Virus record (IMG/VR): IMGVR_UViG_3300042327_001345
Location: 1-55,621 of that record
Reading direction: 5' to 3' (one strand)
Source of the DNA: a virus
Lineage: Duplodnaviria; Caudoviricetes
DNA: 55,621 bases
Every line of letters starts with the position of its first letter. Within the stretch, counting starts at the first letter, position 1. Shown here in pieces: positions 14,083 through 48,289 of the stretch. The notes under the pieces are model-generated. The model did no database searches. It had not been told where the DNA came from and saw only the letters and a list, made by a program, of their open reading frames with translations. A program made the translations under genes and the position numbers.

Positions 14083-14265
14083 ATGCGTCTTGTCAGCGAT
14101 TTAATTAGCGCTATCAAAACTCGCCAGTCGGACTTGAAAGACTCATTAGCCGGGGGTTATGCCCTGAACATTGAGTCTTACAACCGAATGGTTGGTCAAT
14201 ACGCAGGCTTGCAAGAGTCGTTGGATATTCTTGAACGTTTAATGGATGAAGAAAATGATGAGTGA
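14083..14265 (+). CDS. Small helical hypothetical protein adjacent to GroES
   Basis: 60 aa; ESYNRMVGQYAGLQESL; closely coupled to flanking genes. Confidence 0.75.
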   Translation: MRLVSDLISAIKTRQSDLKDSLAGGYALNIESYNRMVGQYAGLQESLDILERLMDEENDE

Positions 14266-14692
14266 TAGCACGGTAGCGGGTTATGCCGCTGATGTAGAGG
14301 AGGCTTTTCCTCTTGTAGACCCCGGAGCAAGACCACTTGGCGCACGAGTTTTAGTACAACTGCGTCGGACAAAAAAGACAGTCACTGCAAGCGGGATTGT
14401 GTTGGTTGAAGAAACACGGGAAACCGAAAAATGGCAAAACATGGTTGGCAAAGTTCTTATGTTGGGCCCTCTGGCCTTTCGTAAGCGCGACTCCATGGAG
14501 CCGTGGGTGGAAGGTGTGTGGGTAAAAGAAGGCGACTTCGTGCGCGTGCCCAAGTGGGGCGGCGACCGCTGGGAGGTTCCTATGCCCAACGCTGAACACG
14601 ATGATGACCCCGTCCTTTTTATGGTTCTCAACGACCATGAATTGATCGCCACCGTCACTGGCAACCCACTTGCAATGAAGGCATTCATATGA
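14258..14692 (+). CDS. groES: GroES/Cpn10-like co-chaperonin
   Basis: RPLGARVLV...TASGIVL...GKVLMLGP...VKEGDFV..PKWGG...VLNDHELIATV. Confidence 0.88.
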   Translation: MSDSTVAGYAADVEEAFPLVDPGARPLGARVLVQLRRTKKTVTASGIVLVEETRETEKWQNMVGKVLMLGPLAFRKRDSMEPWVEGVWVKEGDFVRVPKWGGDRWEVPMPNAEHDDDPVLFMVLNDHELIATVTGNPLAMKAFI

Positions 14693-18854: not shown

Positions 18855-19757
18855 ATGGGTCAATTTAAACCAATGGTGAAAATGGAAACCACTGAGCCAT
18901 CAGTGATTCTGAAGCTGAAAAAGGGTGGCCACGTCAATTACAAAGACGGCGGTCAAGCCGAAAGCGGTCACACAAAAATGGCAGGCGGCGGCAAGATGAG
19001 AGGCGCTTTGCAAATGAGCGCTGAGCCTGCTTTCAAGGGTAAACCAGTTGTGAATGCATCTGTCAAAAATCCTTTGACCAAATTGACCAAGGCCCTAAAG
19101 CCAGTAGTCAAAGCCGCCACAGGTGTTACAACACGCACCGTCGATCCAATCGCCCGAAAAGAGCAAGACCAAGCTCGGTTGAAAGCATTGGATGATAGTG
19201 CGGTTAGGCTCAAAGCGGCTCAGCCAATGCGAAGAGCCAAGGGCGGTAAGGCTGACATGGCGCAAGATAAGGCCATCGTCCAAAAGGCTATGAAGCAACA
19301 CGACACGCAACAGCATGCAGACAAAACAAAGCTGAAGCTCAAGCATGGCGGCAAAATGGCAACTGGCGGTGTGGCAATGAGCAATGCAGGCGGTTACAAA
19401 ACTGGCGGTGTTGTGAACAACAAACCCGGCGGTTACAAGACTGGTGGCGTAGCTATGGCCAACGCTGGCGGTTACGCCAAAGGCGGCATGGTTGATACCG
19501 GTAAGGCTGAAAAAATGCCCCAAGGTATGAAAAAGCCATCACCTCCTGCTACCGGCCAAATCAACTTCTCTGGCGCTTATGCAAACGGCGGTAGAGCAAC
19601 TATGGCCAAACCGATGGCGAAACCGATGGCAAAGTCCTCTGCACCTATGGCTGTAAATCATTCTTCACGCGCTTTGCGTGATGAGGTTTACAAGCCTCAG
19701 GCAAAGCAGATGCGCACGCGAGTCTATAAAAAAGGCGGCAACACAGAAATGTGTTAA
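18855..19757 (+). CDS. Basic low-complexity protein with 11 xxxGG motifs
   Basis: LKKGG, YKDGG, MAGGG, RAKGG, LKHGG, MATGG, YKTGG x2, YAKGG, YANGG, YKKGG. Confidence 0.8.
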   Translation: MGQFKPMVKMETTEPSVILKLKKGGHVNYKDGGQAESGHTKMAGGGKMRGALQMSAEPAFKGKPVVNASVKNPLTKLTKALKPVVKAATGVTTRTVDPIARKEQDQARLKALDDSAVRLKAAQPMRRAKGGKADMAQDKAIVQKAMKQHDTQQHADKTKLKLKHGGKMATGGVAMSNAGGYKTGGVVNNKPGGYKTGGVAMANAGGYAKGGMVDTGKAEKMPQGMKKPSPPATGQINFSGAYANGGRATMAKPMAKPMAKSSAPMAVNHSSRALRDEVYKPQAKQMRTRVYKKGGNTEMC

Positions 19758-33602: not shown

Positions 33603-34238
33603 ATGGCAACAGCAGTGGCGCAGACTTACAACAACCTAGTCACCAGCGTTGAGGCTTATCTGGAGCGAACAGACGCAACGACGATAGCGTACATCCCGAC
33701 TTTCATCATGTTGGCCGAGCAAGTGCTCGCCGCAGACTTGAAGTTTTTGGGCAACCTGAACGTTGGTAATTTCACGCTTGTCCCCGGCCAATCCGTAATA
33801 CAAAAACCGGCTCGTTGGCACAAAACCGTTTCAATGAACATGACGGTTGCCGGTGATAGACAGCCTTTGTTTCTGCGCAAATACGAATTCATGCGCGAAT
33901 ACTGGCCGTCAACCACCGAAACAGCCGTGCCCAAATATTACGGCGACTACGACTACACGCACTGGCTGGTTGCTCCCACCCCTGATCTTGCTTACTCCAT
34001 GGAAGTCAGCTACTACGAGCGCGTACAGCCATTGGACAGCACCAACCAAACCAATTGGTTCACTCAGTATGCCCCGCAGGCCATGTTGTATGGCACATTG
34101 TTACAAGCAATGCCCTTCCTCAAAAACGACGAGCGTTTACAAATGTGGCAAGCACAGTATTCGCAAATCATCACCGCATTGAAGGAAGAAGACAAATCCC
34201 GGATTGGTGACCGACAAGCTATAGCTCTCGACTCATGA
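33603..34238 (+). CDS. Tail adaptor or tubular protein A-like
   Basis: TYNNL...YLER.D...IPTFI.LAE, P.YY, LVAPTPD..Y, TNW....P..LYG.L..A.PFLKNDER. Confidence 0.7.
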   Translation: MATAVAQTYNNLVTSVEAYLERTDATTIAYIPTFIMLAEQVLAADLKFLGNLNVGNFTLVPGQSVIQKPARWHKTVSMNMTVAGDRQPLFLRKYEFMREYWPSTTETAVPKYYGDYDYTHWLVAPTPDLAYSMEVSYYERVQPLDSTNQTNWFTQYAPQAMLYGTLLQAMPFLKNDERLQMWQAQYSQIITALKEEDKSRIGDRQAIALDS

Positions 34239-35473
34239 CTTCATATATTTCACCATTTACAGGGGATGTCGTTGTCCCTACGGATGTAAGTTATGTCAGC
34301 TATACGCTGGCGGCATCTTTGCAGTTGACGTGGCCAGCGAATGGCACGGATGCCGACAATGTTGCGGCTCGCATCATGGATGTCCAAACGCCAAACTTTG
34401 CGTTCAAGCTAAAGATGCCTCCAGCGAGTCAAACCTCCGTTGGTACGGATGCCTTGATCAGAAACACCGGCGCAGTCAATCTGGAAGTTACGAACACCAA
34501 TCTGGGCACAATCACGACGATTCTGCCCGGGGTGGCCGCATACATCTACTTGACCGACAACACCACGGCAAACGGCGTTTGGGGCGTGTTCACGTTTGGC
34601 GCGGGCACATCCACAGCCAACGCGGCAACCTTGGCCGGTTACGGAATTTTGGCGGCAGGCTTAACGCTGAATCAAAGCCATCCGGTCACAAATTTGACGG
34701 CTAGCTATGTGTTCAGCGCCGCCGACAGGGCGCAAGTATTGGAGTGGCCAACATCAGGCGGCACCACAACGGTGACCCTTCCCCTTGCGAGCACGCTGGG
34801 CAACAACTGGTTCTTCATGTTCAAAAACAACGGGACTGGAATTGTGAACCTAGCCACCACGTCCGGTGAGCTTTTAGATGGATCGGCCAGTTCAAAAACG
34901 TTTGCCCCGTCAGAGTCTGCATTTATTATTTGCAACGGGACTGCTTTCATTACGGTCGGATACGGCGTTAGCACGTTGTTCAACTTCACTGCCGCAACAA
35001 AAGTGCTGTCAACCGGAACGGTCACCCTGTCCGCCTCGGAGGCATCAAACACTATCCAAACATTTACCGGAACACTCACCGGCAATGTGACGGTTTATTT
35101 CCCTCCTGTGGTCAACTTGTATGTGGTGAGCAATCAAACCACGGGCCCCTACACAGTTACGATTGGAACGACTCTTGGTTTGACGGTCGTAGTTCCGACG
35201 GGAACGCAAGCAACTGTAGTGTGCGACGGAACAGACTTCTTGAACGCAAACACCACAACAATTGTGGGTTCAGCGGTTTCATTTATTGACGGATCCGCCT
35301 CAAATCCCGCGGCGTTTTTTGCTTCAGAAACCAACACGGGTATTTTTAGATCTGCCCCGGGCGAGTTTGCTATTTCTATTTTGGGAACAAAAAGAGGAGC
35401 TTTTACAGCAACTGGATTTGAAATTACCGGAACCGGTAACTTTACAGGCGGAATATCGGGCGGGTCTTTCTGA
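34235..35473 (+). CDS. Tail structural protein
   Basis: ATGA coupling; beta-rich; DGSASNPA..F..ETNTGIFR fibre-like motif. Confidence 0.65.
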   Translation: MTSYISPFTGDVVVPTDVSYVSYTLAASLQLTWPANGTDADNVAARIMDVQTPNFAFKLKMPPASQTSVGTDALIRNTGAVNLEVTNTNLGTITTILPGVAAYIYLTDNTTANGVWGVFTFGAGTSTANAATLAGYGILAAGLTLNQSHPVTNLTASYVFSAADRAQVLEWPTSGGTTTVTLPLASTLGNNWFFMFKNNGTGIVNLATTSGELLDGSASSKTFAPSESAFIICNGTAFITVGYGVSTLFNFTAATKVLSTGTVTLSASEASNTIQTFTGTLTGNVTVYFPPVVNLYVVSNQTTGPYTVTIGTTLGLTVVVPTGTQATVVCDGTDFLNANTTTIVGSAVSFIDGSASNPAAFFASETNTGIFRSAPGEFAISILGTKRGAFTATGFEITGTGNFTGGISGGSF

Positions 35474-37467
35474 TGGCCGACAAAATCTTTTCGTTAGACA
35501 CAAAGCCGGGAATACAAAGAGACGGAACAATCTTTGACCACGATTTTTATGTCAACGGACAATGGGTTAGGTTCCAACGAGGTCGGCCTCGCAAGATCGG
35601 AGGCTACCGGCAAATAACTGCCGATCTGGCCGGGCCTTCACGCGGCTTGTTTGTTGAGCCAAACAACGGATTTAATACCATCTACAGCGGGTACGCTGAC
35701 GGCTTGCAATCAATCACAATTGACCAAGCTGGTATTGGATCCGGTGTCGTGGACTTCACGCTTTCTGGCTTTACCTCGAACCCAAACAACTTGTGGCAAT
35801 TCGAAGCAACTTTTGATGCAGACGGCACAGGTGCCGAAAACATTATCGCCCACCCGGGACAAAACTTAGGCACAATTGACAACACGGTCAACACGCGTGT
35901 TTTGTTTGGCTCCACAACTGGATCAAGTGTTGCGCCTGTTGGAGTCTTTACGCTGTCAGCCACAACAAATGCAACCACGACTATCACGGTGGCCTCAACG
36001 GCCCTGATTGGCGTTGGGCAATCAATCACGGGATCCAATATCCCGGCTTTAACAACAGTGGTTTCCATCACAAACGCGACGACGTTTGTTATCTCAAACG
36101 CCGCCACATCTTCGGCAACTGTGACTATCACCATAGACAACAACGTCTCAGTGTCTGGCGGCATAGTGATGCTCTACCCATACCTGTTCACGTATGGGAA
36201 TTTTGGCCTGATCAAAAACTCTGGCCCCGCCAATTTAAACGATTGGGTGTCGCCAACGGCGAACGAGGTAAACATCACGGCCACAAAAATTGTCAAGGGT
36301 TTGCCAGTGCGCGGTGGTTCAGCCGCGCCATCAGGATTGTTTTGGTCTTTGGATTCATTGATCAGGGTTAGCTTTACACCAACAACAACTACATCTGGCA
36401 GTACAAGCTCAACGTTTTTTTGGCGCTATGACGTAATCTCATCGCAGTCATCCATCATGTCTTCGCAGTCGGTGATTGAGTATGACGGCGTGTACTACTG
36501 GTGTGGCGTTGATCGTTTCCTGTTGTACAACGGAACGGTCATGGAGATCCCAAACACATTTAATCAAAACTACTTCTTCGACAACCTAAATTACAACCAG
36601 CGTCAAAAGGTTTACGCCATGAAGGTTCCTCGGTATGGGGAAATTTGGTGGTTTTACCCACGCGGTCAAGCAACAGAATGCACCGACGCTATTATTTACA
36701 ACACGCGAGAAAAATGCTGGTACGACGCAGGCCAAGCCGTTGGAGCGCGTAGAAGCGCCGGATACTTCTCTCAGGTTTTCCCCTATCCGGTTAACGCGGG
36801 CTATGAACCAACCGCTGTTGGAGGTGTGTCAACCGCAACAATCACCAACGGTGGAACGCTTTACACAAACGGCTCGTACCCATCTATTGCATTGACTGGC
36901 GGATCAGGAACAGGCGCAAGCGCAAACTTCGTTGTCTCCGGCGGAATAGTTACTGGCATCTCCATTTATGCTCGCGGTATAAATTACGAAGCTCTGGACG
37001 TATTGAGCGCAACATTGCCGGGCGGTAGCGGCCTGACCGTCCGAGTAGATACGCTGATGACTTTCACAAGCCTTTGGCAACATGAGATTGGTGTGGATAG
37101 CATCACGAACACTCAAATTGCCGCTATTGAAAGTTTCTTCGAGACTGGCGACCTTGGATGGGTGGCTGGCGGGCCTAACGAAAATTCATTGGTTGGCCTG
37201 AACAGGTGGCTAAGAATTGAAAGGCTTGAGCCAGATTTCATTCAAACCGGAGACATGCAATTGACGGTAACTGGACGACCTTATGCGCAAGGTCAAGATG
37301 TAGTTTCTCCGGTATTTACCTTTTCACCCACAACTGGAAAGATTGACATGAAAGAACAACGGCGCGAATTGCGTTTGCGTTTTGTGTCAAACGTCGCTGG
37401 CGGTAATTATCAGCTTGGCCGCGTTTTGGTCAGCGCAACCATAGGAGATGTACGTGGCTACGAGTAA
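35473..37467 (+). CDS. Tail tubular protein B or P22 gp10-like stabilisation (nozzle) protein
   Basis: KPGIQRDGT, WVRFQRGRPRKIGGY, YYWCG.DRF..YNG, EIWWFYP, LERLEPDF-like motif; two inserted beta modules. Confidence 0.65.
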   Translation: MADKIFSLDTKPGIQRDGTIFDHDFYVNGQWVRFQRGRPRKIGGYRQITADLAGPSRGLFVEPNNGFNTIYSGYADGLQSITIDQAGIGSGVVDFTLSGFTSNPNNLWQFEATFDADGTGAENIIAHPGQNLGTIDNTVNTRVLFGSTTGSSVAPVGVFTLSATTNATTTITVASTALIGVGQSITGSNIPALTTVVSITNATTFVISNAATSSATVTITIDNNVSVSGGIVMLYPYLFTYGNFGLIKNSGPANLNDWVSPTANEVNITATKIVKGLPVRGGSAAPSGLFWSLDSLIRVSFTPTTTTSGSTSSTFFWRYDVISSQSSIMSSQSVIEYDGVYYWCGVDRFLLYNGTVMEIPNTFNQNYFFDNLNYNQRQKVYAMKVPRYGEIWWFYPRGQATECTDAIIYNTREKCWYDAGQAVGARRSAGYFSQVFPYPVNAGYEPTAVGGVSTATITNGGTLYTNGSYPSIALTGGSGTGASANFVVSGGIVTGISIYARGINYEALDVLSATLPGGSGLTVRVDTLMTFTSLWQHEIGVDSITNTQIAAIESFFETGDLGWVAGGPNENSLVGLNRWLRIERLEPDFIQTGDMQLTVTGRPYAQGQDVVSPVFTFSPTTGKIDMKEQRRELRLRFVSNVAGGNYQLGRVLVSATIGDVRGYE

Positions 37468-37714: not shown

Positions 37715-38127
37715 AACAAGAAACAACACAAAACATTATCAAGCGCTCGAAATCTACCAAGCTTTTGGCAGAAGAGTGGGAACACGTCTACATTGACATC
37801 TACAGAAAACTCAACGAAACAAAAGAGTGGCGATCACTTCGTGCAAACAACACAATTTTCATCTTCAAAAAGGTGGACAAAATTGCCGCAGGTTACGTCT
37901 TCACTGTAGACCCGCCTTTGTTGCAGGGCAAGAATTTTGTTGAGTTTGCAAAATCTTTAGGCAAGGCTGGCTTCGAGCATTTTTCAACTTACGTCAACAA
38001 CCCGATTCCGTTGAAATTTGTGCAAGACGCTGGCTACGAGGTAGAGATTGGAGAAATCATCGGCGACGACGAATTTGCTGAGGTTGCAATAAGCACGACC
38101 CCGGCCCAAGGAGAGCCTCGTGAGTAA
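37711..38127 (+). CDS. Hypothetical protein preceding ejection genes
   Basis: ATGA overlap; 138 aa. Confidence 0.65.
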   Translation: MKQETTQNIIKRSKSTKLLAEEWEHVYIDIYRKLNETKEWRSLRANNTIFIFKKVDKIAAGYVFTVDPPLLQGKNFVEFAKSLGKAGFEHFSTYVNNPIPLKFVQDAGYEVEIGEIIGDDEFAEVAISTTPAQGEPRE

Positions 38128-40747
38128 GTTTTTCAGAGCCCTTGGGCAAACAATCCAAAACCCCGGTCGTATTTTTTCAAATCCAATTGGCGTTTTGCGT
38201 GACGTTGGCGGCGGTCTCATCAAAGATATTTTTGGGGTTGCAAAAGACGTTGGATCATTTACTGGCAACGTTGCTAAAAAAATTGTTGTAGGCACTGGGA
38301 AGGCAATCAAGGCCACCGCCACAACTGTTTACAACACGGCAAAGGCAATCCTAAAAAATCCTTTGCCCACAATTTTGACCATCGGCCTAAGCGCTGTTGG
38401 GGTTCCGTATCCGATTGCAAGTGCGGCTGTATCTGTGTTGAATGGCGGCGACTGGAAAGAGGCCGCAATTAATTTGGCCATGTCGTACGTTGGAGCGCCA
38501 GCCACAAACAAAGAGCTATACAAGCAAGTTTTGATTAGCGCATCAGTTCCTGCTGGCATGGTGGCTCTTAAAGGTGGCACAGCAAAACAAATTCAAGATG
38601 CCGCTATTGCTGGCGCGGTGACAGGATACGTGACAGGCACGCTCACCAAATCAGTAGCCAACGGCGGTTATGGCTTCAAGCCGGGCGAATTAGATACAAA
38701 GATGATTCAGAACGCTACCACCGCGGCTACGCGAGCAATTCTGAATGGCAAAGACATTGGCGAAGCGGTTGTTAATTCAGCCGCTGTAACAGCTTCTGCG
38801 CATTACGTAGCTTCGTTTGCAAACAACCTGACAAAAAATTCTGAGACTTTGCAAGCAACACAAAAATTTATCGACGAGTCAAAAGCAAAGCTTCAAGATG
38901 TGCTCGGCATCACAAGAGAAAAAGAAAAAGCTGTAAACGACAAGGCGAACAAAGCAAAACAATCGGGCGAGGAATATAACAAGTCGGTTGAAACGGCAAA
39001 CAGGATAGCTAAAGGAACCACGGACACGACCGGCATGAGTGATCGGGAATTGAATTTGGTGAACAATATCATGACCACCAATCCCGACAAAGCTCGCGAA
39101 AAATATGAAAACGACAAGTTGGAATATTTGAAAGAATACAACGACTACAGCAAGTTTGTGAATGAGACGTACAACCCGGCAAAAGAAGATTACGAGTCTC
39201 ACGTTCTGGAATACAACCAACAACTGAAAAACCAAGACGTTTTTGCCGACGCTTACGCAACCCACGTTGACCTGTACGAAAAGGCTGTCAAAGATTCGTT
39301 CGATGAATTTCAAGACGCTATATTGAAGCAGGCCGAGTTGGACTTGGCCAAGCAAGCGCCCACGGAAGCGGAGCGTTTACGCAGGGACAAGGAAGCCTTT
39401 GATGCGCAATTGCCTAAAGCGCCGCCTACAACTGCGCCTTCCGGCGAACCCGCTGTTAACAACACCAGTTCGAGCTACAACCAAACAAGCTCAAGCTCAA
39501 CACCGCCAGATCCGTCAAACCCCATTCCAGACACTGGGTCGTCGTCTTATACCGGGCCAATCACAAATCCGGATTTTGGCCAGAACGTCATGCCCAAGGT
39601 TGACACTTCGCCAAAAGCCCCGCCCCCGCCAAAACAAACGGACGTTGGCAAATACTTGACCGATACGGCCACAAAATCCACGGTAAAAGCGGTGAGCGAA
39701 GAATTGAACCCGCCGCCACCGCGGCCAGACATGCCCCCGCCACCTCCTCGGCCAGATATGCCTCCGCCGCCTCCACGGCCTACGCCTCCCCCTGCGCCGC
39801 CCAAGCCACCTGCGCCACCTAAGAGTCCGCTTGATCCGGACAACATTCCTGACCAGCCTAAACCACCGGCAATCAAACCGCCGCCACCACCACCGCCAGA
39901 AATCAAGCCGCCGCCACCCCCGCCGACTCCGCCAAGACAGCCGGGTGACGCAATCAATCTGATGGATCCCAAGTCAAAATTGACTTCCGAAGAGGTGATG
40001 ATTAAGCCGCCTCCCGCGCCACCTACGCCGCCCCGCAAACCGGGCGACGCGCTTAACATTTCCGATCCAAAGGCCAAACTCACCTCGGAAGAGGTGATGA
40101 TTAAGCCTCCGCCACCACCGCCACCACCACCACGTAAACCGGGTGATGCTTTTAATGTGCGGGATCCAAATGCGAAATTGACTTCGGAAGAAGTCATGAT
40201 CAAGCCCCCTCCGCCACCGCCACCCCCGCCTCGCAAGACGGGTGAGGCAATTAATTTGGCCGATCCAAACGCCAAGCTGACGGCGGAAGAGATCATGATC
40301 AAACCGATTGCACCGCCGCCTCCGCCTAATTTGACAAGCAAGGTTGTTGATCCAATCAAAGATCCATACAACATTCCTGCTGAAATCAAAGCGCCGCCAC
40401 CAGCACCCAAACAGCCGGGTGATGTGGGCTATTCACCGCCTGTTGCGCCGCCTCCAACGTCTGTTCTGGATGCCAACTTGACCAGCACCACAACAGCCCC
40501 GCCAACAGTGGCTGAGCAACAAAAAACTTTTGCCGATGCGCAAAAAGTTGTGGCCAAATACACGCCGCCGAAGCCAACAACAAACGTGATGGGCGTGAGG
40601 ACACCGCCGCCTCCACCGCCTCCACTGACTTCAGCACAAAGAACCCAGTTGACTTTGGCGCAAAACGCCCGCAAGGTAGATTCCCGTGGGAACCCTATCA
40701 AACCTATGGGCTTCGATGCAACAGGCAACCCAATTTACGCGACATAA
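38120..40747 (+). CDS. Putative ejection or internal virion protein: hydrophobic Ala/Gly N-terminus, coiled coil, polyproline repeats
   Basis: AAGGAG RBS, GTG start; position between tail genes and SLT gene. Confidence 0.7.
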   Translation: MSKFFRALGQTIQNPGRIFSNPIGVLRDVGGGLIKDIFGVAKDVGSFTGNVAKKIVVGTGKAIKATATTVYNTAKAILKNPLPTILTIGLSAVGVPYPIASAAVSVLNGGDWKEAAINLAMSYVGAPATNKELYKQVLISASVPAGMVALKGGTAKQIQDAAIAGAVTGYVTGTLTKSVANGGYGFKPGELDTKMIQNATTAATRAILNGKDIGEAVVNSAAVTASAHYVASFANNLTKNSETLQATQKFIDESKAKLQDVLGITREKEKAVNDKANKAKQSGEEYNKSVETANRIAKGTTDTTGMSDRELNLVNNIMTTNPDKAREKYENDKLEYLKEYNDYSKFVNETYNPAKEDYESHVLEYNQQLKNQDVFADAYATHVDLYEKAVKDSFDEFQDAILKQAELDLAKQAPTEAERLRRDKEAFDAQLPKAPPTTAPSGEPAVNNTSSSYNQTSSSSTPPDPSNPIPDTGSSSYTGPITNPDFGQNVMPKVDTSPKAPPPPKQTDVGKYLTDTATKSTVKAVSEELNPPPPRPDMPPPPPRPDMPPPPPRPTPPPAPPKPPAPPKSPLDPDNIPDQPKPPAIKPPPPPPPEIKPPPPPPTPPRQPGDAINLMDPKSKLTSEEVMIKPPPAPPTPPRKPGDALNISDPKAKLTSEEVMIKPPPPPPPPPRKPGDAFNVRDPNAKLTSEEVMIKPPPPPPPPPRKTGEAINLADPNAKLTAEEIMIKPIAPPPPPNLTSKVVDPIKDPYNIPAEIKAPPPAPKQPGDVGYSPPVAPPPTSVLDANLTSTTTAPPTVAEQQKTFADAQKVVAKYTPPKPTTNVMGVRTPPPPPPPLTSAQRTQLTLAQNARKVDSRGNPIKPMGFDATGNPIYAT
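39902..40306 (+). repeat. Four 99-bp (33-aa) tandem repeats IKP(n)RKPGDAxNxxDPxAKLTSEEVM
   Basis: Units start 39902, 40001, 40100, 40199; partial fifth at 40298. Confidence 0.92.
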
Positions 40748-40756
40748 GGGGCAAAA

Positions 40757-43738
40757 ATGGCCAACCCAAAACTTACAAAAAAACGAAGCACGCTCTATTT
40801 GCAAAAGAAGCCAGCAAAAACTACGGCTTTGCAAGATTTTTTGCCAACGCAAAACACGGGCACTTCTTCGCTGACTTCGGTGGTTGGCACTGACACATCC
40901 AGCGGAAACATGGTTGGCCCAAGCGGCGGCTCATCGACAAGCACGACATCCGGCAAATCAGACAGCACAGTTAGCGACCTGATCAAGGCAGGCTTGGTGA
41001 CTGCTGGTGGGGCGTATTTGGTTGATAAGGTGCTGGACGAAATCAACAAGCCCACAACACCAACCACCCCTACCACCCCAACGGCTCCAAAGACTCCGAC
41101 GACTCCGCCTACTTCTATCGTAATACCGCCCAAAACGCCCGTGACGGATCCCGACAGCCCTGATTTCGTGGGGCCAAAAATTCCCGTCAACAACGAGTCA
41201 TCAGGCTACTACAAGCCGCCTGTCACAGATCCGGACGATCCAGCTTTTATGGGGCCAAAAGTACCTGTAAACAATGAATCTTCTGGTTATTACAAGCCGC
41301 CAGTAATTCCTGTAAATAACGAGTCGTCCGGTTACTACAAGCCACCGGTCACCAATCCAGACGACCCTGACTTCATGGGGCCTTCATTGCCTGTGAATAA
41401 TGAAAGCTCTGATTATTCAGCGCCCCCGGTCAACAACGAAAGCTCCGGCTATTACACGCCGCCAAACAATGAGTCTTCAGGCTATTACACCCCGCCTGTA
41501 AGCCCCCTGTCACCGACAGAGCCGCCGGTCAATAACGAGACTTCGAGCTATACCCAACCGCCCGTGAGTCCATTAACACCAACTGAGCCGCCGCCTAACA
41601 ACGAAAGCTCAAGCTACTACACAAGCCCAGCGCCGGTGACTACGCCAGTTGCGCCGCCAACGACTACGCCATCTTCGCCGCTGTCGCCGGTAAATTTGAC
41701 ACCCACTCCAACACCCACGCCAGAAGTGCCTGTGAACAACGAGAGTTCGGGCTACTACACGCCTCCGGCAAGCCCGCTGTCGCCCACACCAGAGACACCC
41801 GTTAACAACGAGTCTTCCAGCTACACGCCGACACCCGCACCAACGCCCGCACCATCTCCCGTCGATGATGCGATGGCGGCAAAGGCCGCGCTGTACGGCA
41901 TGAGCCTTGATGAATACAAGTCATACGTGGACTATTACGGCGAAGAATATTTGGATAACTATTACGCTGGTGTATACGATGAAACGCCGGTCAACAATGA
42001 GTCGTCCAGCTACACGGATCCATCCACAACGCCGCCAAAAACCGTAGCCGAAGAATATGGCATGACGGAAGAAGAATACGCGGCCTACGAAGAAGAGTAC
42101 TACAGACAATATTACGAAGACTATTACAAAAATTACTACGACACCACGCCTGTAAACAATGACTCATCCGATTACACAAATTACGAACCGCCAGTCAACA
42201 ACGAAAGTTCTGGCTACACACAAGAGCAGGCCGACTACGATGCGCAGGTTGCCGAGTACAACCGCTATTTGGAAGAGCAAGCCGCCTATGAAAAATACTT
42301 AGACGAGCAAGCCGCTTACGACCAGTACCTTAAAGAGCAAGCTGAATACGATCAGTACTTGGCTGACCAAGCCGCGTACCAACAGTATTTGGAAGACCAA
42401 GCCGCTTATCAAGAGTATTTAGACCAACAGGCCGCGTACGACCAATACTTGGCTGACTTGGCCGAATACACAAACTCGTCCGGTTACTACAATAACAACT
42501 ACGACGCGAACAATGACACGTCAAGTTACACCGATTCTTATGTGAACAACAGCAGTTCAGGTTATTACAAAAAAGGCGGGAGCATCAAGATGAAAAACGG
42601 TGGTTTACCAAGATTTGAAGAAGGCGGCACTACCGACTACGACAGAAATTATTACAACGAATCTTCCAGCTACTACGTGCCTGATGATGCGTACAACACA
42701 ACTTCCAGCTACTACACCGAGCCGGACGTGAACAACACATCGTCAGGTTACTACGACAGCACGCCAGTCAATAACGATCAATCAAGCTACTACACCGATT
42801 CGGATGTAAACAACACCTCATCTGGTTATTACGACAACACACCCGTGAACAATGACACGTCGGGCTATTACAACAATGAACCTGTGAACAATACCAGTTC
42901 CAATTACAACCAACAAAGTCCGGCGTACACCGCTCCGAATCCAGCGAATCCAATACCGATCAACGCCCCCACAAGCGCACCAGCCACGCCAAAATCTGGC
43001 GATAACTTATTCAGCAATTTCACATCAACAGACGCATTGAAAACCGGGCTTGGCTTAACCGCGCTTTATCAGCTTATCAAGGCGTATGAAGGCAAAGACG
43101 ACATAAAAAACAACGCAACTATGCCCGCGTTTCAATCACCCGCAAGCCGAACCACTCCTTTTGGCATGGGTGCGGCTAGATCTGTGGCTACGGGCAATAT
43201 CCCTTACCAGTTCCCGGGCGCAATGGACAAGCAAAACCTGTATTCAAATCTGGGCGTGCCGGGCTATGAGCAGGACTACGAAGATCCCGTAGAGCCAATG
43301 GAGGGTATGGCCGCAGGCGGTATGGCATCCAATCCGGACGACATGCCGTATTTCACCTACGGCAAGCCAACAGACCCCATGTCGATCATGGGCATGACCG
43401 CCCCGGTCAACAAAATGGCCAAAGGCGGCCTGCCTCGCGCTGAGCAAAAGCTTCCCCCAATGGTCGAAGGCCGGTATGATTACAGGCAGAGCCGGGCCGT
43501 TGTTGGTGAGGGCGATGGCCAAAGCGACGATATCCCAGCCATGCTGGCCGACGGCGAGTATGTTTTTGATGCCGATGTCGTTGCCGCCTTGGGTAACGGA
43601 TCCAACAAAGCTGGTGCAGAAATTTTGGACGAGTTTCGCGAAAAAATACGCGCTCACAAAAGGTCAGCGCCTATTGATGAAATTCCACCAAAAGCCAAAT
43701 CGCCTTTGGCATACATGAAGGAGGTGTCTCGTGGCTGA
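40757..43738 (+). CDS. Putative ejection protein with about 23 VNNESSGYY-type repeats, Tyr decad repeat, five xxxGG tags and C-terminal SDDIPAMLADGEYV domain
   Basis: Direct translation; position in ejection cluster. Confidence 0.75.
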   Translation: MANPKLTKKRSTLYLQKKPAKTTALQDFLPTQNTGTSSLTSVVGTDTSSGNMVGPSGGSSTSTTSGKSDSTVSDLIKAGLVTAGGAYLVDKVLDEINKPTTPTTPTTPTAPKTPTTPPTSIVIPPKTPVTDPDSPDFVGPKIPVNNESSGYYKPPVTDPDDPAFMGPKVPVNNESSGYYKPPVIPVNNESSGYYKPPVTNPDDPDFMGPSLPVNNESSDYSAPPVNNESSGYYTPPNNESSGYYTPPVSPLSPTEPPVNNETSSYTQPPVSPLTPTEPPPNNESSSYYTSPAPVTTPVAPPTTTPSSPLSPVNLTPTPTPTPEVPVNNESSGYYTPPASPLSPTPETPVNNESSSYTPTPAPTPAPSPVDDAMAAKAALYGMSLDEYKSYVDYYGEEYLDNYYAGVYDETPVNNESSSYTDPSTTPPKTVAEEYGMTEEEYAAYEEEYYRQYYEDYYKNYYDTTPVNNDSSDYTNYEPPVNNESSGYTQEQADYDAQVAEYNRYLEEQAAYEKYLDEQAAYDQYLKEQAEYDQYLADQAAYQQYLEDQAAYQEYLDQQAAYDQYLADLAEYTNSSGYYNNNYDANNDTSSYTDSYVNNSSSGYYKKGGSIKMKNGGLPRFEEGGTTDYDRNYYNESSSYYVPDDAYNTTSSYYTEPDVNNTSSGYYDSTPVNNDQSSYYTDSDVNNTSSGYYDNTPVNNDTSGYYNNEPVNNTSSNYNQQSPAYTAPNPANPIPINAPTSAPATPKSGDNLFSNFTSTDALKTGLGLTALYQLIKAYEGKDDIKNNATMPAFQSPASRTTPFGMGAARSVATGNIPYQFPGAMDKQNLYSNLGVPGYEQDYEDPVEPMEGMAAGGMASNPDDMPYFTYGKPTDPMSIMGMTAPVNKMAKGGLPRAEQKLPPMVEGRYDYRQSRAVVGEGDGQSDDIPAMLADGEYVFDADVVAALGNGSNKAGAEILDEFREKIRAHKRSAPIDEIPPKAKSPLAYMKEVSRG
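42257..42469 (+). repeat. About seven 30-bp (10-aa) repeats YxxYLxxQAA
   Basis: YNRYLEEQAA YEKYLDEQAA YDQYLKEQAE YDQYLADQAA YQQYLEDQAA YQEYLDQQAA YDQYLADLAE. Confidence 0.9.
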
Positions 43739-44705
43739 TTTATTCCAAGGTCAACCGTTACCAAGCCTGAAAACTCAGGAGCAAAAGCAAACCATTGCTC
43801 CTCAGTACCTGACGGACTACCAACAAGACATCATTAATTTGGGCAAAAACGCTGTGCAACAAGGCGGCGTTGCCGGTCTGTCACCGCTTACCCAGCAAGC
43901 CCTGAACATGGCTCCGCAAATGACGCAGGCGGGTGCTGGATCAACCGGAACCGCGCAAGATCTGTTGACGCAAAGCGGTTACACGGGCGCAAATCAAATC
44001 GTTCAGAACTACATGAACCCGTACACCAAAAACGTGGTTGATGAAATGTCTCGCTTGAGCCAGCGTGACGTGCGCGATAACGTAATGCCTATGTTTGACA
44101 CGGCCTCGATCGGGTCTGGCAACTTTGGCGGGTCAAGAGCGGGCATGATGAAAGGCCAAACACTGGCCGACATTCAGTCTGATCTGCTGGGTAAGCAATT
44201 CGGAGCGCTCAACACCGGCTACAACCAAGCCATGGGCTATGCGCAAGGCGACCTAAGTCGTGGAGTGCAGGCTGGTCAAGCGCTGAATCAAACAGCGCAA
44301 GTACAAAACCAAATTGGCTCCGGCGCGTTGAAGCAAATGGCGGATCTTGGCTCAATCGAGCAAAAGCAACAGCAAAATCAACTTGACTATCCAATGGCAC
44401 AGGCCAAGGATTTTGCAACGCTGATGCAGGGTCAGAATGTACCAACAGGATCTTCGCAAACAACAATTGCCCCGGGCGAAGCAAACAAATACGGATTGAG
44501 TCCTTTGGAGCAAATGGTTTCTTTGGCCGCGCTTTACAAATCGTTTACCGATCCAAATGCAAGCGTGCCTTTCATCTCGGACAAACTGCCAGCGAAAGCT
44601 CAAGGCGGTAGCGTTTTCCAAGATCAACAGATGATCCCTGAGGGGGCTGTTTTCTATGACGAAGATGGCAATTTTTATGACACTGAAGGCAACGTCTTGG
44701 GGTAA
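43731..44705 (+). CDS. Putative DNA-ejection (pilot) protein
   Basis: GGAGG RBS; Gln/Gly-rich, YMNPYT..VVD, GNFGGSR motifs; KAQGG tag near C-terminus. Confidence 0.7.
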   Translation: MADLFQGQPLPSLKTQEQKQTIAPQYLTDYQQDIINLGKNAVQQGGVAGLSPLTQQALNMAPQMTQAGAGSTGTAQDLLTQSGYTGANQIVQNYMNPYTKNVVDEMSRLSQRDVRDNVMPMFDTASIGSGNFGGSRAGMMKGQTLADIQSDLLGKQFGALNTGYNQAMGYAQGDLSRGVQAGQALNQTAQVQNQIGSGALKQMADLGSIEQKQQQNQLDYPMAQAKDFATLMQGQNVPTGSSQTTIAPGEANKYGLSPLEQMVSLAALYKSFTDPNASVPFISDKLPAKAQGGSVFQDQQMIPEGAVFYDEDGNFYDTEGNVLG

Positions 44706-44711
44706 TAAGTT

Positions 44712-46484
44712 ATGGCCATTCAAAGTCCGTTAGAACAAGTTAACAACGAATCCTCGTCTTATACCGGCGGACGGAATGTTTCGCCCTTGGCGCAAGAACA
44801 GCCTGTGACGCAAGATGTGATGCAAGACGAGGCTGAGGACGAATTGCCGTCTGCGCAGGCATCGCCGCCAGCAGTTGCGCAATTGACAGATCCCATTGCC
44901 GCGCAAATGGAAAAGTTTCGCGCCGGTCGGCAAGCCCTTGACGCGCAAATAACAAAGATGAAGGCCGCTTTAGCCGAGCGCCAAAAATTACCGTTTGACC
45001 CAGTCATGTTGGCAGTCGCCCAAGCCGCGGCAACCCCGTCCAGCACGGGCAGTGGCATTCAGGGTCTTGGCCGTATAGCTGGCGCGTATGGCGACGCTTA
45101 TTCAAAAGAGCGTCTGCGTCAAGAGGCAAACGCAAAAGAGCAATTAGCGTTATCTGAAAAACAATATGACTTGCTGAAACAAGAAGCGGGCCAAGAAGCG
45201 CTATACAAATTTGCTACCGGCCAAGGTCAGCAAGGCGTGCCGCCACAGGGCGGAACAAATGTAGCCGCGCTGACCACGCAAAGCACGAGCGCGCCACCAG
45301 TAGCTGATATTCCACCAACCGGAGGTATGCGACGCATCACCGATCAAGACATCATTCAATTGGCGATTGCCAATCCCGAAGCGGCTGAGATGTTGCGTCA
45401 GACTGCAAAAATGCAAAGGGATGCACTTGTTGTGACCGCTGAGGGTGTGTTCAACACAATTACCGGCAAGTTCGAAGTGAACTTTGAGATGCCGATCAAG
45501 CGGCCCGTGCGCGTGCTTGGCGAAGTTGACATGACCAAAGGTCAGTCGAAGCAGTACGACACTTTGATGAACAGATTAATGCAATCTGGAGCCACTGACG
45601 AACAGCTAGACCAAGCCGCGGCAAGCTTCGCGGCGCAAAACGGTATTGGCGGCGTACGCAAAAAACCAGACGGCACGTTCTCTGGGTTTGCAAGCCCACG
45701 CGAAAAGGCCAATATTGCTGAGCAAGACAAGGCGACAATTGCCAACCGAGCAGAAGAAAACAAGGCGGCTCGCACATCTATTTACGGCGCTGGGCAACGC
45801 GCACAAACCGTCGTACAGCAATCAAAAATTCTGTACAACCTTTCAACCGACCCTACAACAAGAAATGCGTTTGGTGTGTTGAATAAGCCGGGCGTGTTGA
45901 ACGCGTTTGCCCAAGCGGTATCGCAGGGGGTACAAGCTGGCGGCTCAACGATTGCGTTTCCCGGACTTGAGACTGCGGTGCGTAACGCGGGCGGCACACA
46001 GCAAGAAATCAATGCGGCAATCATTGCGGCGCAAGCTCAATCTGTATTGCAATTGATGGCCGCGCAAGATTACTTAAAAGGCCAAGGCGCGGTGTCCGAC
46101 GCGGAGCGTAGGCTGATCAGCAATCTTGCTGGTTCGTTGTCCGACACACCACAAACCATGGCCATGAAAGCTAAGGTAATCGAAGCGCGGGCAAATTACG
46201 ACAAGATGGTATCGGACGCTTTTTACAAATACGAAGAAACCAATCCAAACGCGACAGTGCAAGAGTTTTATCGCAAGTCACCTGAATTTAAAAATTTGTT
46301 CGAAGCTTACGACTCTCACATGGAGAAGTTGTATGGCCACTACTTTGGATCAAAATCCAGCACTAAACCTGCCGCCCCATCCACAAATCAAGCTCCGTCA
46401 AAAGCCCCGGCAAATGCGCCAAATCAAAATAGAACACCCGGCCCGCTGGAACAACGGATCATTGACGGTAGGAAGAAAAACTAA
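44712..46484 (+). CDS. Putative ejection protein (helical)
   Basis: 590 aa; KGQGAVSDAER motif; N-terminal SPLEQVNNESSSY. Confidence 0.7.
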   Translation: MAIQSPLEQVNNESSSYTGGRNVSPLAQEQPVTQDVMQDEAEDELPSAQASPPAVAQLTDPIAAQMEKFRAGRQALDAQITKMKAALAERQKLPFDPVMLAVAQAAATPSSTGSGIQGLGRIAGAYGDAYSKERLRQEANAKEQLALSEKQYDLLKQEAGQEALYKFATGQGQQGVPPQGGTNVAALTTQSTSAPPVADIPPTGGMRRITDQDIIQLAIANPEAAEMLRQTAKMQRDALVVTAEGVFNTITGKFEVNFEMPIKRPVRVLGEVDMTKGQSKQYDTLMNRLMQSGATDEQLDQAAASFAAQNGIGGVRKKPDGTFSGFASPREKANIAEQDKATIANRAEENKAARTSIYGAGQRAQTVVQQSKILYNLSTDPTTRNAFGVLNKPGVLNAFAQAVSQGVQAGGSTIAFPGLETAVRNAGGTQQEINAAIIAAQAQSVLQLMAAQDYLKGQGAVSDAERRLISNLAGSLSDTPQTMAMKAKVIEARANYDKMVSDAFYKYEETNPNATVQEFYRKSPEFKNLFEAYDSHMEKLYGHYFGSKSSTKPAAPSTNQAPSKAPANAPNQNRTPGPLEQRIIDGRKKN

Positions 46485-48289
46485 TGGAAGACCTTGACAA
46501 CCTATCTGAAAGCCAGCGCAAGGTAGCCCTGATGATCGCCGAAAAAGCGCGTGAGGCTGGTGTGGATCCTGAGTTGGCCTTAGCGCTTGCCTTTGTCGAA
46601 AACCGCTTCAGGCCAAAAGGCGTATCGCCAAAGGGGGCTATTGGCCCAATGCAAATCATGCCGGTAACGGCCAAAGCCTACGGCTATGAGGCCAAAGATT
46701 TGTACGACCTTGAAACAAATGTCGAGCTTGGCTTAAGAATCTTCAAAGACAACTTGGTCAATTACAACAACAACACGCGTGCCGCGCTAGCAAACTACAA
46801 CACGACTACGGCCAGAACAAAAAAATTCATCGAAGGCGGTGAAGATTTCAACGCGTTGTTGCCTGAAACTCAAAAATTCTTGGAAGATATTGACGCTATA
46901 CGCAACACTGATGCGCCCGGATTGATTGGTGTTGCGGCAACAAAACGTGCGCCTATTGATTTTGGCTCTTTGCCCAATGAGGAGCCGCCAGCCGCAGGTG
47001 CACCACAACCCGCGCCAGAAGAAGCGCCAGCAATAGATACCGAAAGCATGTTTGGCCCGATCGACGAAAACGATGCCGTTGGCCAGCCGCCCCCACCTGA
47101 GGCCCCGCCGGAGCCAAAATCTTTGCTTGGCCAAGCGGAAGAAGCTGTGATGGCTGGCATGAAAACAGTCAACGCAAACCCAGAGATTGCCGGGGCTACA
47201 GCGGCTGGAGCGGCTTTGGGATACAAGGCCGGGTCTGCCGGTATGGATTCTTTGAAATCTATGCAGGCCGGTGTTGAAAAGGCGCAGGGCAATCTGTTGG
47301 ATGCCCAAACCAAGCAAAACGCAACGCAAGTGGCCAAGCCACAGCTTTCGCAAGCCATCGACAAAACCTACGCCGAAATCGACGACACGGTAAAACAGCG
47401 GCAAGCCAAGCTTGATGCCATGAACAAAATGGTCATGGATCTTGACGAAGAAATCCAGCGCAAATCACCGCCCGAATTACGCGGCTCGCAAAAGTACGTT
47501 GACACGTTGGCTGGCGACGACCTGCCGTACAACCAAAAAACCATGGCCGACAACATGCGGTCAAACAACGCCACCGGCGGGCAACGGATCATCAACCAAA
47601 ACGCCGCCGCCAAACAAAAACTTGCCGGAATGGGTCTGGGTAATTACCAGCTTACAACCCCACAGCCGGGTCAGCTTGCTTTGCCGCCGGAACTGGCCGC
47701 AGAAGAGAATCGCAGAAACGCCGTGGCCGACAAAGCCCGCCGTCAGGCATTGTTGCAAGCCCAAAAAAGAGCCGAAGAAGCCAAGGCAAGCTTGGAAAAC
47801 GCCCAGCGGATGAAGGCTTTGCAAGAAAAGAACCGGGCATTGACCCAAACAAACTTAGAGTCTGACACTATCAAGGCCCAAGCCAACACACAAGCCGCTC
47901 AAGATGCCCTCAAGCAAGCAAAGGCCAACGCCCCGCGTGGGCTGGGTAAAGTTGGCGCGGCGGCTCAAACGGTTGCCGGTAAAACCTTAGGCGTTTTGGG
48001 TGGCGTAGCCGCACCATTGACAGCCGCAGAGGCTTTGGACAGATACCAAAAAGGCGACACCTCAGGAGCGGTCATTTCGGGGTTTGAGTCACTTTTTGCG
48101 GCCATGTCCATGCTACCCCCGGGCACGCCGCTCACGGCCTTCCTGAAGGGCTTGGGGATCACGGGTGGGCTGGCTACCGCGGCAATTGACTTATATCGCC
48201 AGCGCTCGCAACAGAAAGCCCCTCCGCCCCCACCTGCACCAAAATCACCGTTAGCTCAATCAAACACCTCTCCGATAGAATTAACGTAG
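46484..48289 (+). CDS. Internal virion protein with N-terminal lytic transglycosylase (SLT) domain
   Basis: GVDPELALALAFVENRF....SPKGAIGPMQIMP.TA...NVELG...ALANYN; hydrophobic Gly-rich C-terminus. Confidence 0.87.
   Translation: MEDLDNLSESQRKVALMIAEKAREAGVDPELALALAFVENRFRPKGVSPKGAIGPMQIMPVTAKAYGYEAKDLYDLETNVELGLRIFKDNLVNYNNNTRAALANYNTTTARTKKFIEGGEDFNALLPETQKFLEDIDAIRNTDAPGLIGVAATKRAPIDFGSLPNEEPPAAGAPQPAPEEAPAIDTESMFGPIDENDAVGQPPPPEAPPEPKSLLGQAEEAVMAGMKTVNANPEIAGATAAGAALGYKAGSAGMDSLKSMQAGVEKAQGNLLDAQTKQNATQVAKPQLSQAIDKTYAEIDDTVKQRQAKLDAMNKMVMDLDEEIQRKSPPELRGSQKYVDTLAGDDLPYNQKTMADNMRSNNATGGQRIINQNAAAKQKLAGMGLGNYQLTTPQPGQLALPPELAAEENRRNAVADKARRQALLQAQKRAEEAKASLENAQRMKALQEKNRALTQTNLESDTIKAQANTQAAQDALKQAKANAPRGLGKVGAAAQTVAGKTLGVLGGVAAPLTAAEALDRYQKGDTSGAVISGFESLFAAMSMLPPGTPLTAFLKGLGITGGLATAAIDLYRQRSQQKAPPPPPAPKSPLAQSNTSPIELT

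Follow-up and report, generated by a model that had tools for sequence, protein, structure and literature searches.

A constant C-terminal module of a podophage ejection-cassette protein and its relationship to the near-C-terminal element of siphophage tape measure proteins

The organization and expulsion of internal proteins in short-tailed phages are poorly understood, and the same is true of the role of the approximately 100 unresolved residues that precede the terminal plug of the tape measure proteins (TMPs) of long-tailed phages. In this work, the C-terminal module of a 993-residue protein (the carrier) encoded by the virus record IMGVR_UViG_3300042327_001345 (Duplodnaviria; Caudoviricetes) was studied. 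The whole stretch of DNA that was analysed, 55,621 nucleotides in length, comprises the entire record and is referred to as the window. The core of the module is a short element that resembles a segment of siphophage TMPs, and it is preceded by a tag of the h-x-x-GG type.

The closest described systems include TMPs. From lambda gpH, a piece of approximately 14 kDa is removed in a Gly-rich region, and both the exact site and the catalysis of this cleavage are given as unknown in the passage of PMC12617516 that deals with it. For the TMP gp46 of phage JBD30, a segment called the hook was predicted by the authors to consist of two helices and a beta-hairpin; in the same passage of PMC11445458, they speculated that it anchors the TMP to the baseplate once the terminal domain leaves, by analogy with T5. 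According to passages of PMC10038345, T5 pb2 is cleaved after R1127, and the last 43 residues of pb2* wedge between the opened subunits of the pb3 hub. In a review of ejection proteins (PMC8954989), "tape measure" is used once, and no shared element is described in the passage concerned. No description of the element was found in the literature, as far as open-access text is concerned.

The C-terminal module and its relationship to tape measure proteins

The stretch considered here is the constant C-terminal module of a hypervariable protein encoded in a podophage ejection cassette. The N-terminal 833 residues of the carrier are hypervariable, rich in Pro, Asn, Ser and Tyr, and contain 17 VNNESSxY repeats; a relative of this part was found in only 6 of 80 related loci, all of which had been fetched via the C-terminal piece. 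An alignment of 25 sequences was made from the window and 24 of the 80 loci, with numbering on the 160-residue C-terminal piece. In this alignment, all positions but one between G84 and V103 were invariant, and the tail HKR...IPP..K....Y was likewise fixed. An alignment of 105 sequences showed no variation at D, I, P, A, L, G, E and V, in part because these residues were demanded by the pattern used to scan for the sequences.

A prediction made from the letters of the DNA alone (the original prediction) had flagged positions 43415..43700. It had read the beginning of the stretch correctly: MAKGG (ATG GCC AAA GGC GGC) starts at 43415 and is followed by a 25-residue spacer and by VVGEGDGQSDDIPAMLADGEYVFDADVVAALGNGS. 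After the spacer come GEGDGQSDDIPAMLADGEYVFDADVVAALGNGSNKAGAEILDEFREKIRAH, a basic tail and the stop codon. The conserved block, from approximately 43292 to 43735, is wider than the flagged one. The core motif, G-x-G-x-(x)-SD-x-[IV]P-A-x-L-x-x-G-E-[FYH]-V and then A-x-x-V-x-x-x-G, is present as GEGDGQSDDIPAMLADGEYVFDADVVAALG, and the core ends 26 residues ahead of the stop codon, that is, near the C-terminus. The features of this region are as follows:

42563..42628, + strand: cluster of three internal tags YYKKGGSIKMKNGGLPRFEEGG, residues 603-624 (a similar cluster occurs in homologs P0006 and P0055)
43307..43321, + strand: tag MAAGG ("MA.GG" in the consensus of the 25-sequence alignment)
43349..43363, + strand: aromatic motif YFTYG between tags (consensus YYTYG in the 25-sequence alignment)
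43415..43429, + strand: tag MAKGG, the upstream tag of the element (G57 and G58 nearly invariant, L59 invariant)
43430..43504, + strand: 25-residue spacer with conserved G-R-x-D-Y-R (R73 and R77 invariant, D75 nearly so)
43505..43657, + strand: core TMP-type element GEGDGQSDDIPAMLADGEYV, helix (ADVVAAL), GNGS loop and long helix; residues 917-967
43658..43735, + strand: basic tail KRSAPxxxIPPKxKSPLxYxK (K135, R136, I143, P144, P145, K148 and Y153 invariant)

When the 160-residue piece was compared with PHROGs, seven of the nine weak matches were TMP families (best match phrog_6090, E 2.7e-5), and the TMP matches were limited to residues approximately 908-957 of the carrier. A permissive tblastn search with 82 residues lacking the tag returned 314 phage records; 45 of 60 rows sampled across the ranking lay in annotated TMP genes. 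A profile of the podophage module, compared with the sequences of the PDB, matched the Douge TMP gp16 twice (963-1003 and 1412-1449; E 6.7e-5) and JBD30 gp46 at 1008-1056 (E 0.3).

A set of nine TMP elements was then assembled from lambda gpH and eight tblastn matches (phages of Gordonia, Arthrobacter, Vibrio, Pseudomonas, Burkholderia, Nitrincola, Rhodococcus and Mycobacterium). The podophage profile was aligned to these elements by hhalign with a probability of 98.3% and E 1.4e-14 over 51 columns, in a test that is partly circular because the TMPs had been chosen via similarity to the same query. The real score was 78.3, and 29 of 30 column-shuffled controls scored at most 13.1. The remaining shuffle gave a score of 131 and a probability of 99.7 over 3 columns (hhalign -norealign), which was taken as a numerical artefact. 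The reversed control gave E 0.26. A hidden Markov model (HMM) built from the TMP elements only found a single site in the window (E 4e-10). This site, 43505-43657, stood alone among 1100 six-frame fragments, the next best match having an E of at least 0.49; the genome has one copy of the element, as originally predicted.

The tags provided a further point of agreement. A tag was found on each side of the element in all nine TMPs, though the query had held none, and this supports the view that the h-x-x-GG tags belong to the same system as the element. The window has its MAKGG tag separated from G-x-G by the 25-residue spacer, and eight of the nine TMP elements have the upstream h-A-x-GG tag without a spacer. 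A comparable insert is present in the TMP of Vibrio phage CAU_VPP01. A downstream tag, [P]-x-[FY]-x-x-GG, occurs in 9 of 9 TMP elements; the window form has instead the basic tail KRSAP...KSPLAYMK and a stop codon.

Profile and motif comparison confirmed that the segment is truly related to the element near the C-terminus of siphophage TMPs. At this level of comparison, the module core is the same element as the one near the far end of the TMPs of long-tailed phages, namely, G-x-G-x-SD-x-IPA-x-L-x-x-GE[FY]V with a helix hairpin, preceded by an h-x-x-GG tag. This likeness had been pointed out in the original prediction, together with a related ATGG...GEFV...ATGG stretch near the cleavage of lambda gpH. 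Both points proved sound. Lambda gpH contains FHFATGG (731), HRGEFV (752) and GYATGG (777), a divergent copy spanning residues approximately 731-783 beside the cleavage region described in PMC12617516. By the passage on cleavage in that source, the lambda element is part of the fragment gpHC, on the downstream side of the cut made in the Gly-rich region. A TMP-element profile built without lambda matched gpH 710-795 with a probability of 66.8% and E 5.3e-5. The direct comparison of the podophage profile with gpH was weak (E 0.027, probability 1.85%), so that the link depends on the TMP profile as an intermediate. TIGR01541 covers gpH 472-813, and Pfam covers only 54-256 and 627-701; the lambda element is therefore inside TIGR01541 and outside both Pfam domains. 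The window module reached neither TIGR01541 nor the Pfam domains of gpH.

The carrier itself is not a TMP. A Pfam scan of the carrier gave no family at E<=1, and with respect to TMP families beyond the short element (TIGR01541, PF06791, PF09718), Pfam gave nothing at this threshold and NCBIfam gave nothing at all. The record has a CheckV completeness of 99%, and family searches of the window proteins in this 99%-complete genome found no TMP, tail-tube or sheath family. Likewise, no family of the long-tail gene set (tube, chaperones, distal tail protein, hub) was found around the carrier gene. The length of the carrier is not that of a ruler tied to a tail: within closely related phages of approximately 55 kb, carriers range from approximately 300 to more than 4000 residues. 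Because the genome encodes an SU10-type adaptor, has no long-tail families and has the carrier gene in a + strand run behind short-tail genes, it is of the podophage type, with the carrier in an ejection or internal-protein cassette. The phage had indeed been predicted to be without a TMP.

The homolog of the carrier in Caulobacter phage GB2A (L001 10525-12267) bears the annotation "tail length tape measure protein", while in RW, RLK and KcrB this gene is called "hypothetical protein". The short shared element may explain the GB2A label, which is a caution for annotators.

Distribution of the module, GG tags and gene neighbourhood

The C-terminal module was found in 3993 protein clusters, with carriers of about 300 to more than 4000 residues. 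At E<=0.001, matches were obtained for 2005 clusters of 546-1738 residues (among 2240 candidates); 166 longer clusters (among 245) and 1822 shorter ones (among 1992) also matched, some of the latter on contigs of approximately 55 kb. Relatives were encoded in 595 of 599 pattern-matched IMG/VR stretches. The Caulobacter phages GB2A and RW have a copy of the module with 49% identity, and a megablast search of 20 kb of the window against phages gave no matches. In some relatives (P0018, P0053), the strand-plus-helix unit is doubled. The tail also distinguishes subtypes of the module, with KSPLAYLK in some and KALTSYLK in others.

To locate the element within proteins, IMG/VR was scanned at the DNA level with the pattern D-[ST]-I-P-A-x-L-[ST]-x-G-E-[FY]-V, and at least 119 stretches were hit; 80 loci were listed, with 81 matches and 80 distinct segments. 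Among the matches listed, the element lay at most 135 residues from the end of the open reading frame (ORF) in 70 of the 76 instances with an intact end. Scanning of 45 ORFs from 13 of the listed loci against PHROGs revealed three settings. True TMPs were the first (L113, L130). The second comprised window-like proteins encoded one or two genes behind phrog_3287 (4 of 4: L103, L107, L127, L150), and the third comprised proteins of 300-600 residues encoded immediately after the portal gene (5 of 5: L106, L114, L118, L126, L164). Behind the post-portal carriers, phrog_13678 and a major head protein came next in all four loci with downstream sequence. In the TMPs of phages of Gram-negative hosts, the element is 85-135 residues from the end. 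In the post-portal family, it is approximately 85-110 residues from the end and has its own conserved lead-in, LS.IFDKV...EF.G.G. The element is also present in two further podophage records, those of phage D14I (see below) and of Roseobacter phage CRP-9, whose gp54 (L095 4412-8599; 1395 residues, one small gene after the portal gene) has the element and tags in the middle of the protein.

By eye, 29 tag-like GG sites were counted in five window proteins; the original prediction had given "about 25 free tags". With the strict pattern [FYML]xxGG, enrichment was confined to two proteins: a 300-residue protein (10 observed, 0.63 expected) and the carrier (5 observed, 0.66 expected), neither count being reached in any of 300 shuffles. 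There was no enrichment in a 1405-residue protein (3 observed, 1.84 expected).

The 300-residue protein (18855-19757, + strand) is encoded two genes after the capsid gene and has 14 GG sites, mostly of the YKTGGV or YAKGGM type; its sole relative in a tblastn search of the phage collection was in MW202545. The 1405-residue protein (5489-9706, + strand), encoded between the large terminase and portal genes, has a PcfJ-like domain and an ART-PolyVal (ADP-ribosyltransferase of polyvalent proteins) domain. Its tags are of the K-GG-L type, at residues approximately 342, 350, 662, 900, 1134 and 1399, and it ends with KKGGLVGTL. The stretch after the tag at approximately 1134 repeats the N-terminal leader of the same protein (PSVV.SLADEVRAEMAA), as though a cassette had been fused on.

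The genome encodes small and large terminase subunits, a portal, a capsid protein of the Mu-gpT/Phage_capsid_4 type, fibres, lysis proteins and the SU10-type adaptor. The genes behind the short-tail genes form a + strand run encoding proteins of 138, 875, 993, 324, 590 and 601 residues. The genes at the carrier locus are as follows:

33603..37467, + strand: upstream short-tail genes encoding the SU10-type adaptor (211 residues), a 412-residue protein and a 664-residue protein (phrog_3287)
40757..43738, + strand: carrier gene (ORF, 993 residues)
43731..44705, + strand: gene of a 324-residue protein with a match to phrog_4287 "DNA ejection protein"; its start overlaps the carrier stop codon, and the protein ends with one tag (AKAQGGSVF)
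44712..48289, + strand: genes of a 590-residue protein and a 601-residue protein with an N-terminal SLT transglycosylase domain

A cassette behind the tail genes that includes a lytic transglycosylase-bearing protein is the arrangement of podophage ejection or internal proteins. It was kept in the related loci and also in MW202545 and GB2A. In the 80 related loci, some of which are incomplete, relatives were found of the 324-residue protein in 77, of the 664-residue protein in 70, of the 412-residue protein in 68, of the 590-residue protein in 64, of the adaptor in 59 and of the SLT protein in 51.

Several other observations were made at this locus. A second short repeat, [PV]-V-N-N-E-S-S-x-Y, which contains an N-x-S sequon, occurs 17 times in the carrier (41189-42887), once in the 875-residue protein (39458) and once at the N-terminus of the 590-residue protein (44742). 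A candidate K/Q-S-P-L-[AED] motif, noted by eye, is present in the C-terminal tails of the carrier and the 601-residue protein (43703-43720 and 48250-48270), inside the 875-residue protein (approximately 39820) and at the N-terminus of the 590-residue protein (44721-44800). The 875-residue protein (38120-40747, + strand) is rich in Gly and Ala in its N-terminal part and contains four proline-rich repeats (...KLTSEEVMIKPPPPPP...), and no family was found for it. Elsewhere, a GroES/Cpn10-like gene lies between the portal and head genes (14246-14689, + strand).

Possible function of the module

The structure of the module was predicted with AlphaFold2. The mean predicted local distance difference test score (pLDDT) rose from 50.6 for an alignment of 25 sequences to 68.1 for one of 105 diverse sequences. 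In the latter prediction, residues 933-962 (GEYV, helix ADVVAAL, loop and long helix) had a pLDDT of 86-92, and the invariant strand GDGQSDDIPAML had a pLDDT of 56-64 and no assigned secondary structure. Only a helix-loop-helix of approximately 30 residues was confident, and no globular fold was apparent in either prediction. A confident hairpin next to an invariant strand of low confidence is a pattern typical of a segment that folds on a partner. A prediction of a three-copy complex of the 160-residue piece, made without controls, gave scores of 0.00 and 0.01 and was not counted for or against any reading.

No peptidase or other family or fold was found for the module in Pfam, NCBIfam and PDB sequence searches. 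In Foldseek searches, no PDB structure matched at E<=0.001, and all matches from BFVD were uncharacterised homologs. Lambda gpH has no SD pair, nor have the second half-repeats of P0018, P0053 and phage D14I, so that the candidate catalytic residues are not kept in all members. Most likely, the module is without enzymatic activity. Two matches were set aside: the polysaccharide monooxygenase 5foh in a phmmer search of the PDB (E 0.42 and 0.11), judged to be due to chance, and crAss_CARG1 in the ESM Atlas (0.84, below the lead threshold and unsupported by Pfam), where the other hits were unnamed viral clusters.

Homology, position and constancy of the module were established above; its function and partner were inferred. 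There is about an even chance that the module is non-enzymatic and serves to dock or anchor proteins that are expelled through the tail. For the invariant extended strand to become ordered, contact with a partner along the DNA exit path would be required; this partner could be the lumen of the tail or nozzle or a neighbouring ejection protein. Docking would hold one end of the protein in place, either in the virion or in the open channel, and the variable part would be free to differ. This proposal is based on the presence of a constant end on a body with an approximately ten-fold range of length, on the conserved neighbours and on the mostly near-terminal position. It is also based on the fact that the carriers are all channel or head-internal proteins and that the invariant strand is not predicted to fold alone. 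The anchor proposed for the JBD30 hook and the wedge formed by T5 pb2*, as presented in passages of PMC11445458 and PMC10038345, respectively, point in the same direction.

Several points weigh against docking. The presumed partner is only hypothetical. Podophage nozzles and siphophage hubs are not known to be homologous, and a common partner is thus not obvious. In actinophage TMPs (Hestia, DirkDirk, Hail2Pitt, ReqiPine5), the element is internal, 420-780 residues from the end, and in Douge it occurs twice; internal and repeated copies fit poorly with an anchor at the end alone. In the F116-like Pseudomonas phage D14I, the element and a half-repeat are at the N-terminus of a protein (L094 6941-9028) encoded next to a 3851-residue "DNA methyltransferase". 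T5 pb2, the sole TMP with a solved post-ejection anchor, had no significant similarity (E 0.12-0.6). The JBD30 hook itself is only a prediction in the passage of PMC11445458 that concerns it. Furthermore, the element was unresolved in the cryo-electron microscopy structures, as judged from the parts of the structural reports that give the residues built: only the last 33 residues of gp46 in JBD30, 1658-1699 in Douge and 818-849 in lambda.

The main rival to docking, considered unlikely, is that the element and the GG tags are a processing-site module, that is, the substrate side of a maturation cleavage by a host or virion protease at or beside the tag. A leading fragment, such as gpHC or pb2C, would be split from the body, and the free tags elsewhere would be cut sites releasing cargo domains. 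The one mapped TMP cleavage, that of T5 pb2 after R1127 (a passage of PMC10038345), is directly ahead of the tag-like AEGG, and R-A-x-G-G was retained in five of six aligned T5-family TMPs. Lambda gpH is cut in a Gly-rich region, in the account of PMC12617516 just upstream of FHFATGG (731). The repetition of the N-terminal leader after the tag at approximately 1134 in the ART-bearing protein would also be consistent with release of cargo. Of two TMPs checked, that of Hail2Pitt has tag-like sites at 246 and 471 with an SLT domain (378-452 of the fetched piece) between them, and that of ReqiPine5 had no Pfam-recognised enzyme after the tags. Neither an M15 peptidase behind the Hail2Pitt element nor an NlpC/P60 domain behind the ReqiPine5 tag, both suspected by eye, was confirmed by Pfam. 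However, no cleavage has been mapped at a canonical tag, and T5 has no recognisable element. Moreover, only a 26-residue tail follows the element in the window protein, so nothing substantial would be released.

It is quite improbable that the module acts as an envelope-engaging leading end, which would leave the virion first, fold or bind at peptidoglycan, membrane or divalent cations, and help ratchet the protein out. The position of the element near the tail-tip end in TMPs of phages of Gram-negative hosts would suit such a role. The hosts range from actinobacteria to proteobacteria and cyanobacteria, and a universal target would be needed. By eye, G-x-G-x-x-D-D-I may resemble a single RTX-type turn. 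However, no peptidoglycan-binding or calcium-binding family was matched, the module has no hydrophobic segment, and post-portal carriers need not leave first.

The function originally predicted is very doubtful, whether the element would bind free GG tags on other virion proteins in trans, through strand complementation, or act on them by (auto)proteolysis: the absence of the downstream tag that TMP forms have in addition to the upstream one (both sides in 9 of 9) could leave an open edge, and tag-rich proteins are encoded in the same genome, but the family, SD and fold results given above do not point to a reader or protease, one element against some 28 tags is an odd stoichiometry, and most TMPs have the element without any free tags, ordinary TMPs having only their own two flanking ones. 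Within it, the podophage form may conceivably bind free tags in trans. Overall, the original prediction was partly supported: its TMP relationship, lambda copy and tags were upheld, and its reader or protease was not.

A broader speculation, improbable as a whole, would combine docking with processing. The tag and the GE[FY]V element would be a universal handle of proteins that pass the portal or tail channel before the DNA (TMPs, ejection proteins and post-portal cargo) and dock in the exit path. The h-x-x-GG tags would be protease cut sites and the free tags a cargo-release code; podophage ejection proteins and TMPs would have a common modular origin, and gpH would be cleaved at FATGG.

Comparison with known systems

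One small module, conserved nearly letter for letter, is thus common to thousands of proteins of uncultured podophages and to TMPs of the lambda, JBD30 and Douge types. It is a concrete, mutable target in established systems (lambda, JBD30 and Caulobacter phages).

Polyvalent or cargo proteins of the ART-PolyVal type, of which the window has an example at 5489-9706, are large and modular, are encoded near the portal and packaging genes and have the same tags; the carrier differs in having no recognisable enzyme domain. With the ejection proteins of P22 (gp7, gp20, gp16) and T7 (gp14, gp15, gp16), the carrier locus has in common that the cassette follows the tail genes, that one member bears an SLT domain and that another matches phrog_4287 "DNA ejection protein", whereas the carrier has no detectable homology to any characterised ejection protein.

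T5 pb2 offers a parallel to the role proposed for the element: it is expelled, and a part close to its end becomes lodged in the channel of exit. As a member of the element family, pb2 was rejected (E 0.6 and 0.12 as a single sequence, 0.33 and 0.14 as a six-member alignment), and it was kept as a functional analogy and a lead on cleavage.

Lambda gpH, which is expelled before the DNA, has the tag, the GE[FY]V strand, a short helix with G-x-G and a second tag in the same order, close to its C-terminus. It differs from the window form in having no G-x-G-x-SD-x-IP part (KYEPAGIVHRGEFV); it has also kept a downstream tag, and another 70 of its residues plug into gpI. The hook of JBD30 gp46 (1022-1066) and the two segments of Douge gp16 (963-1003 and 1412-1449) are parts of true rulers in long tails, and the two Douge copies are internal and distant from the end. 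Nevertheless, both proteins have the full G-P-G-T-G-x-SD-S-[IM]-x-x-x-x-S-N-x-E-F and, upstream of it, the [FY]A-x-GG tag.

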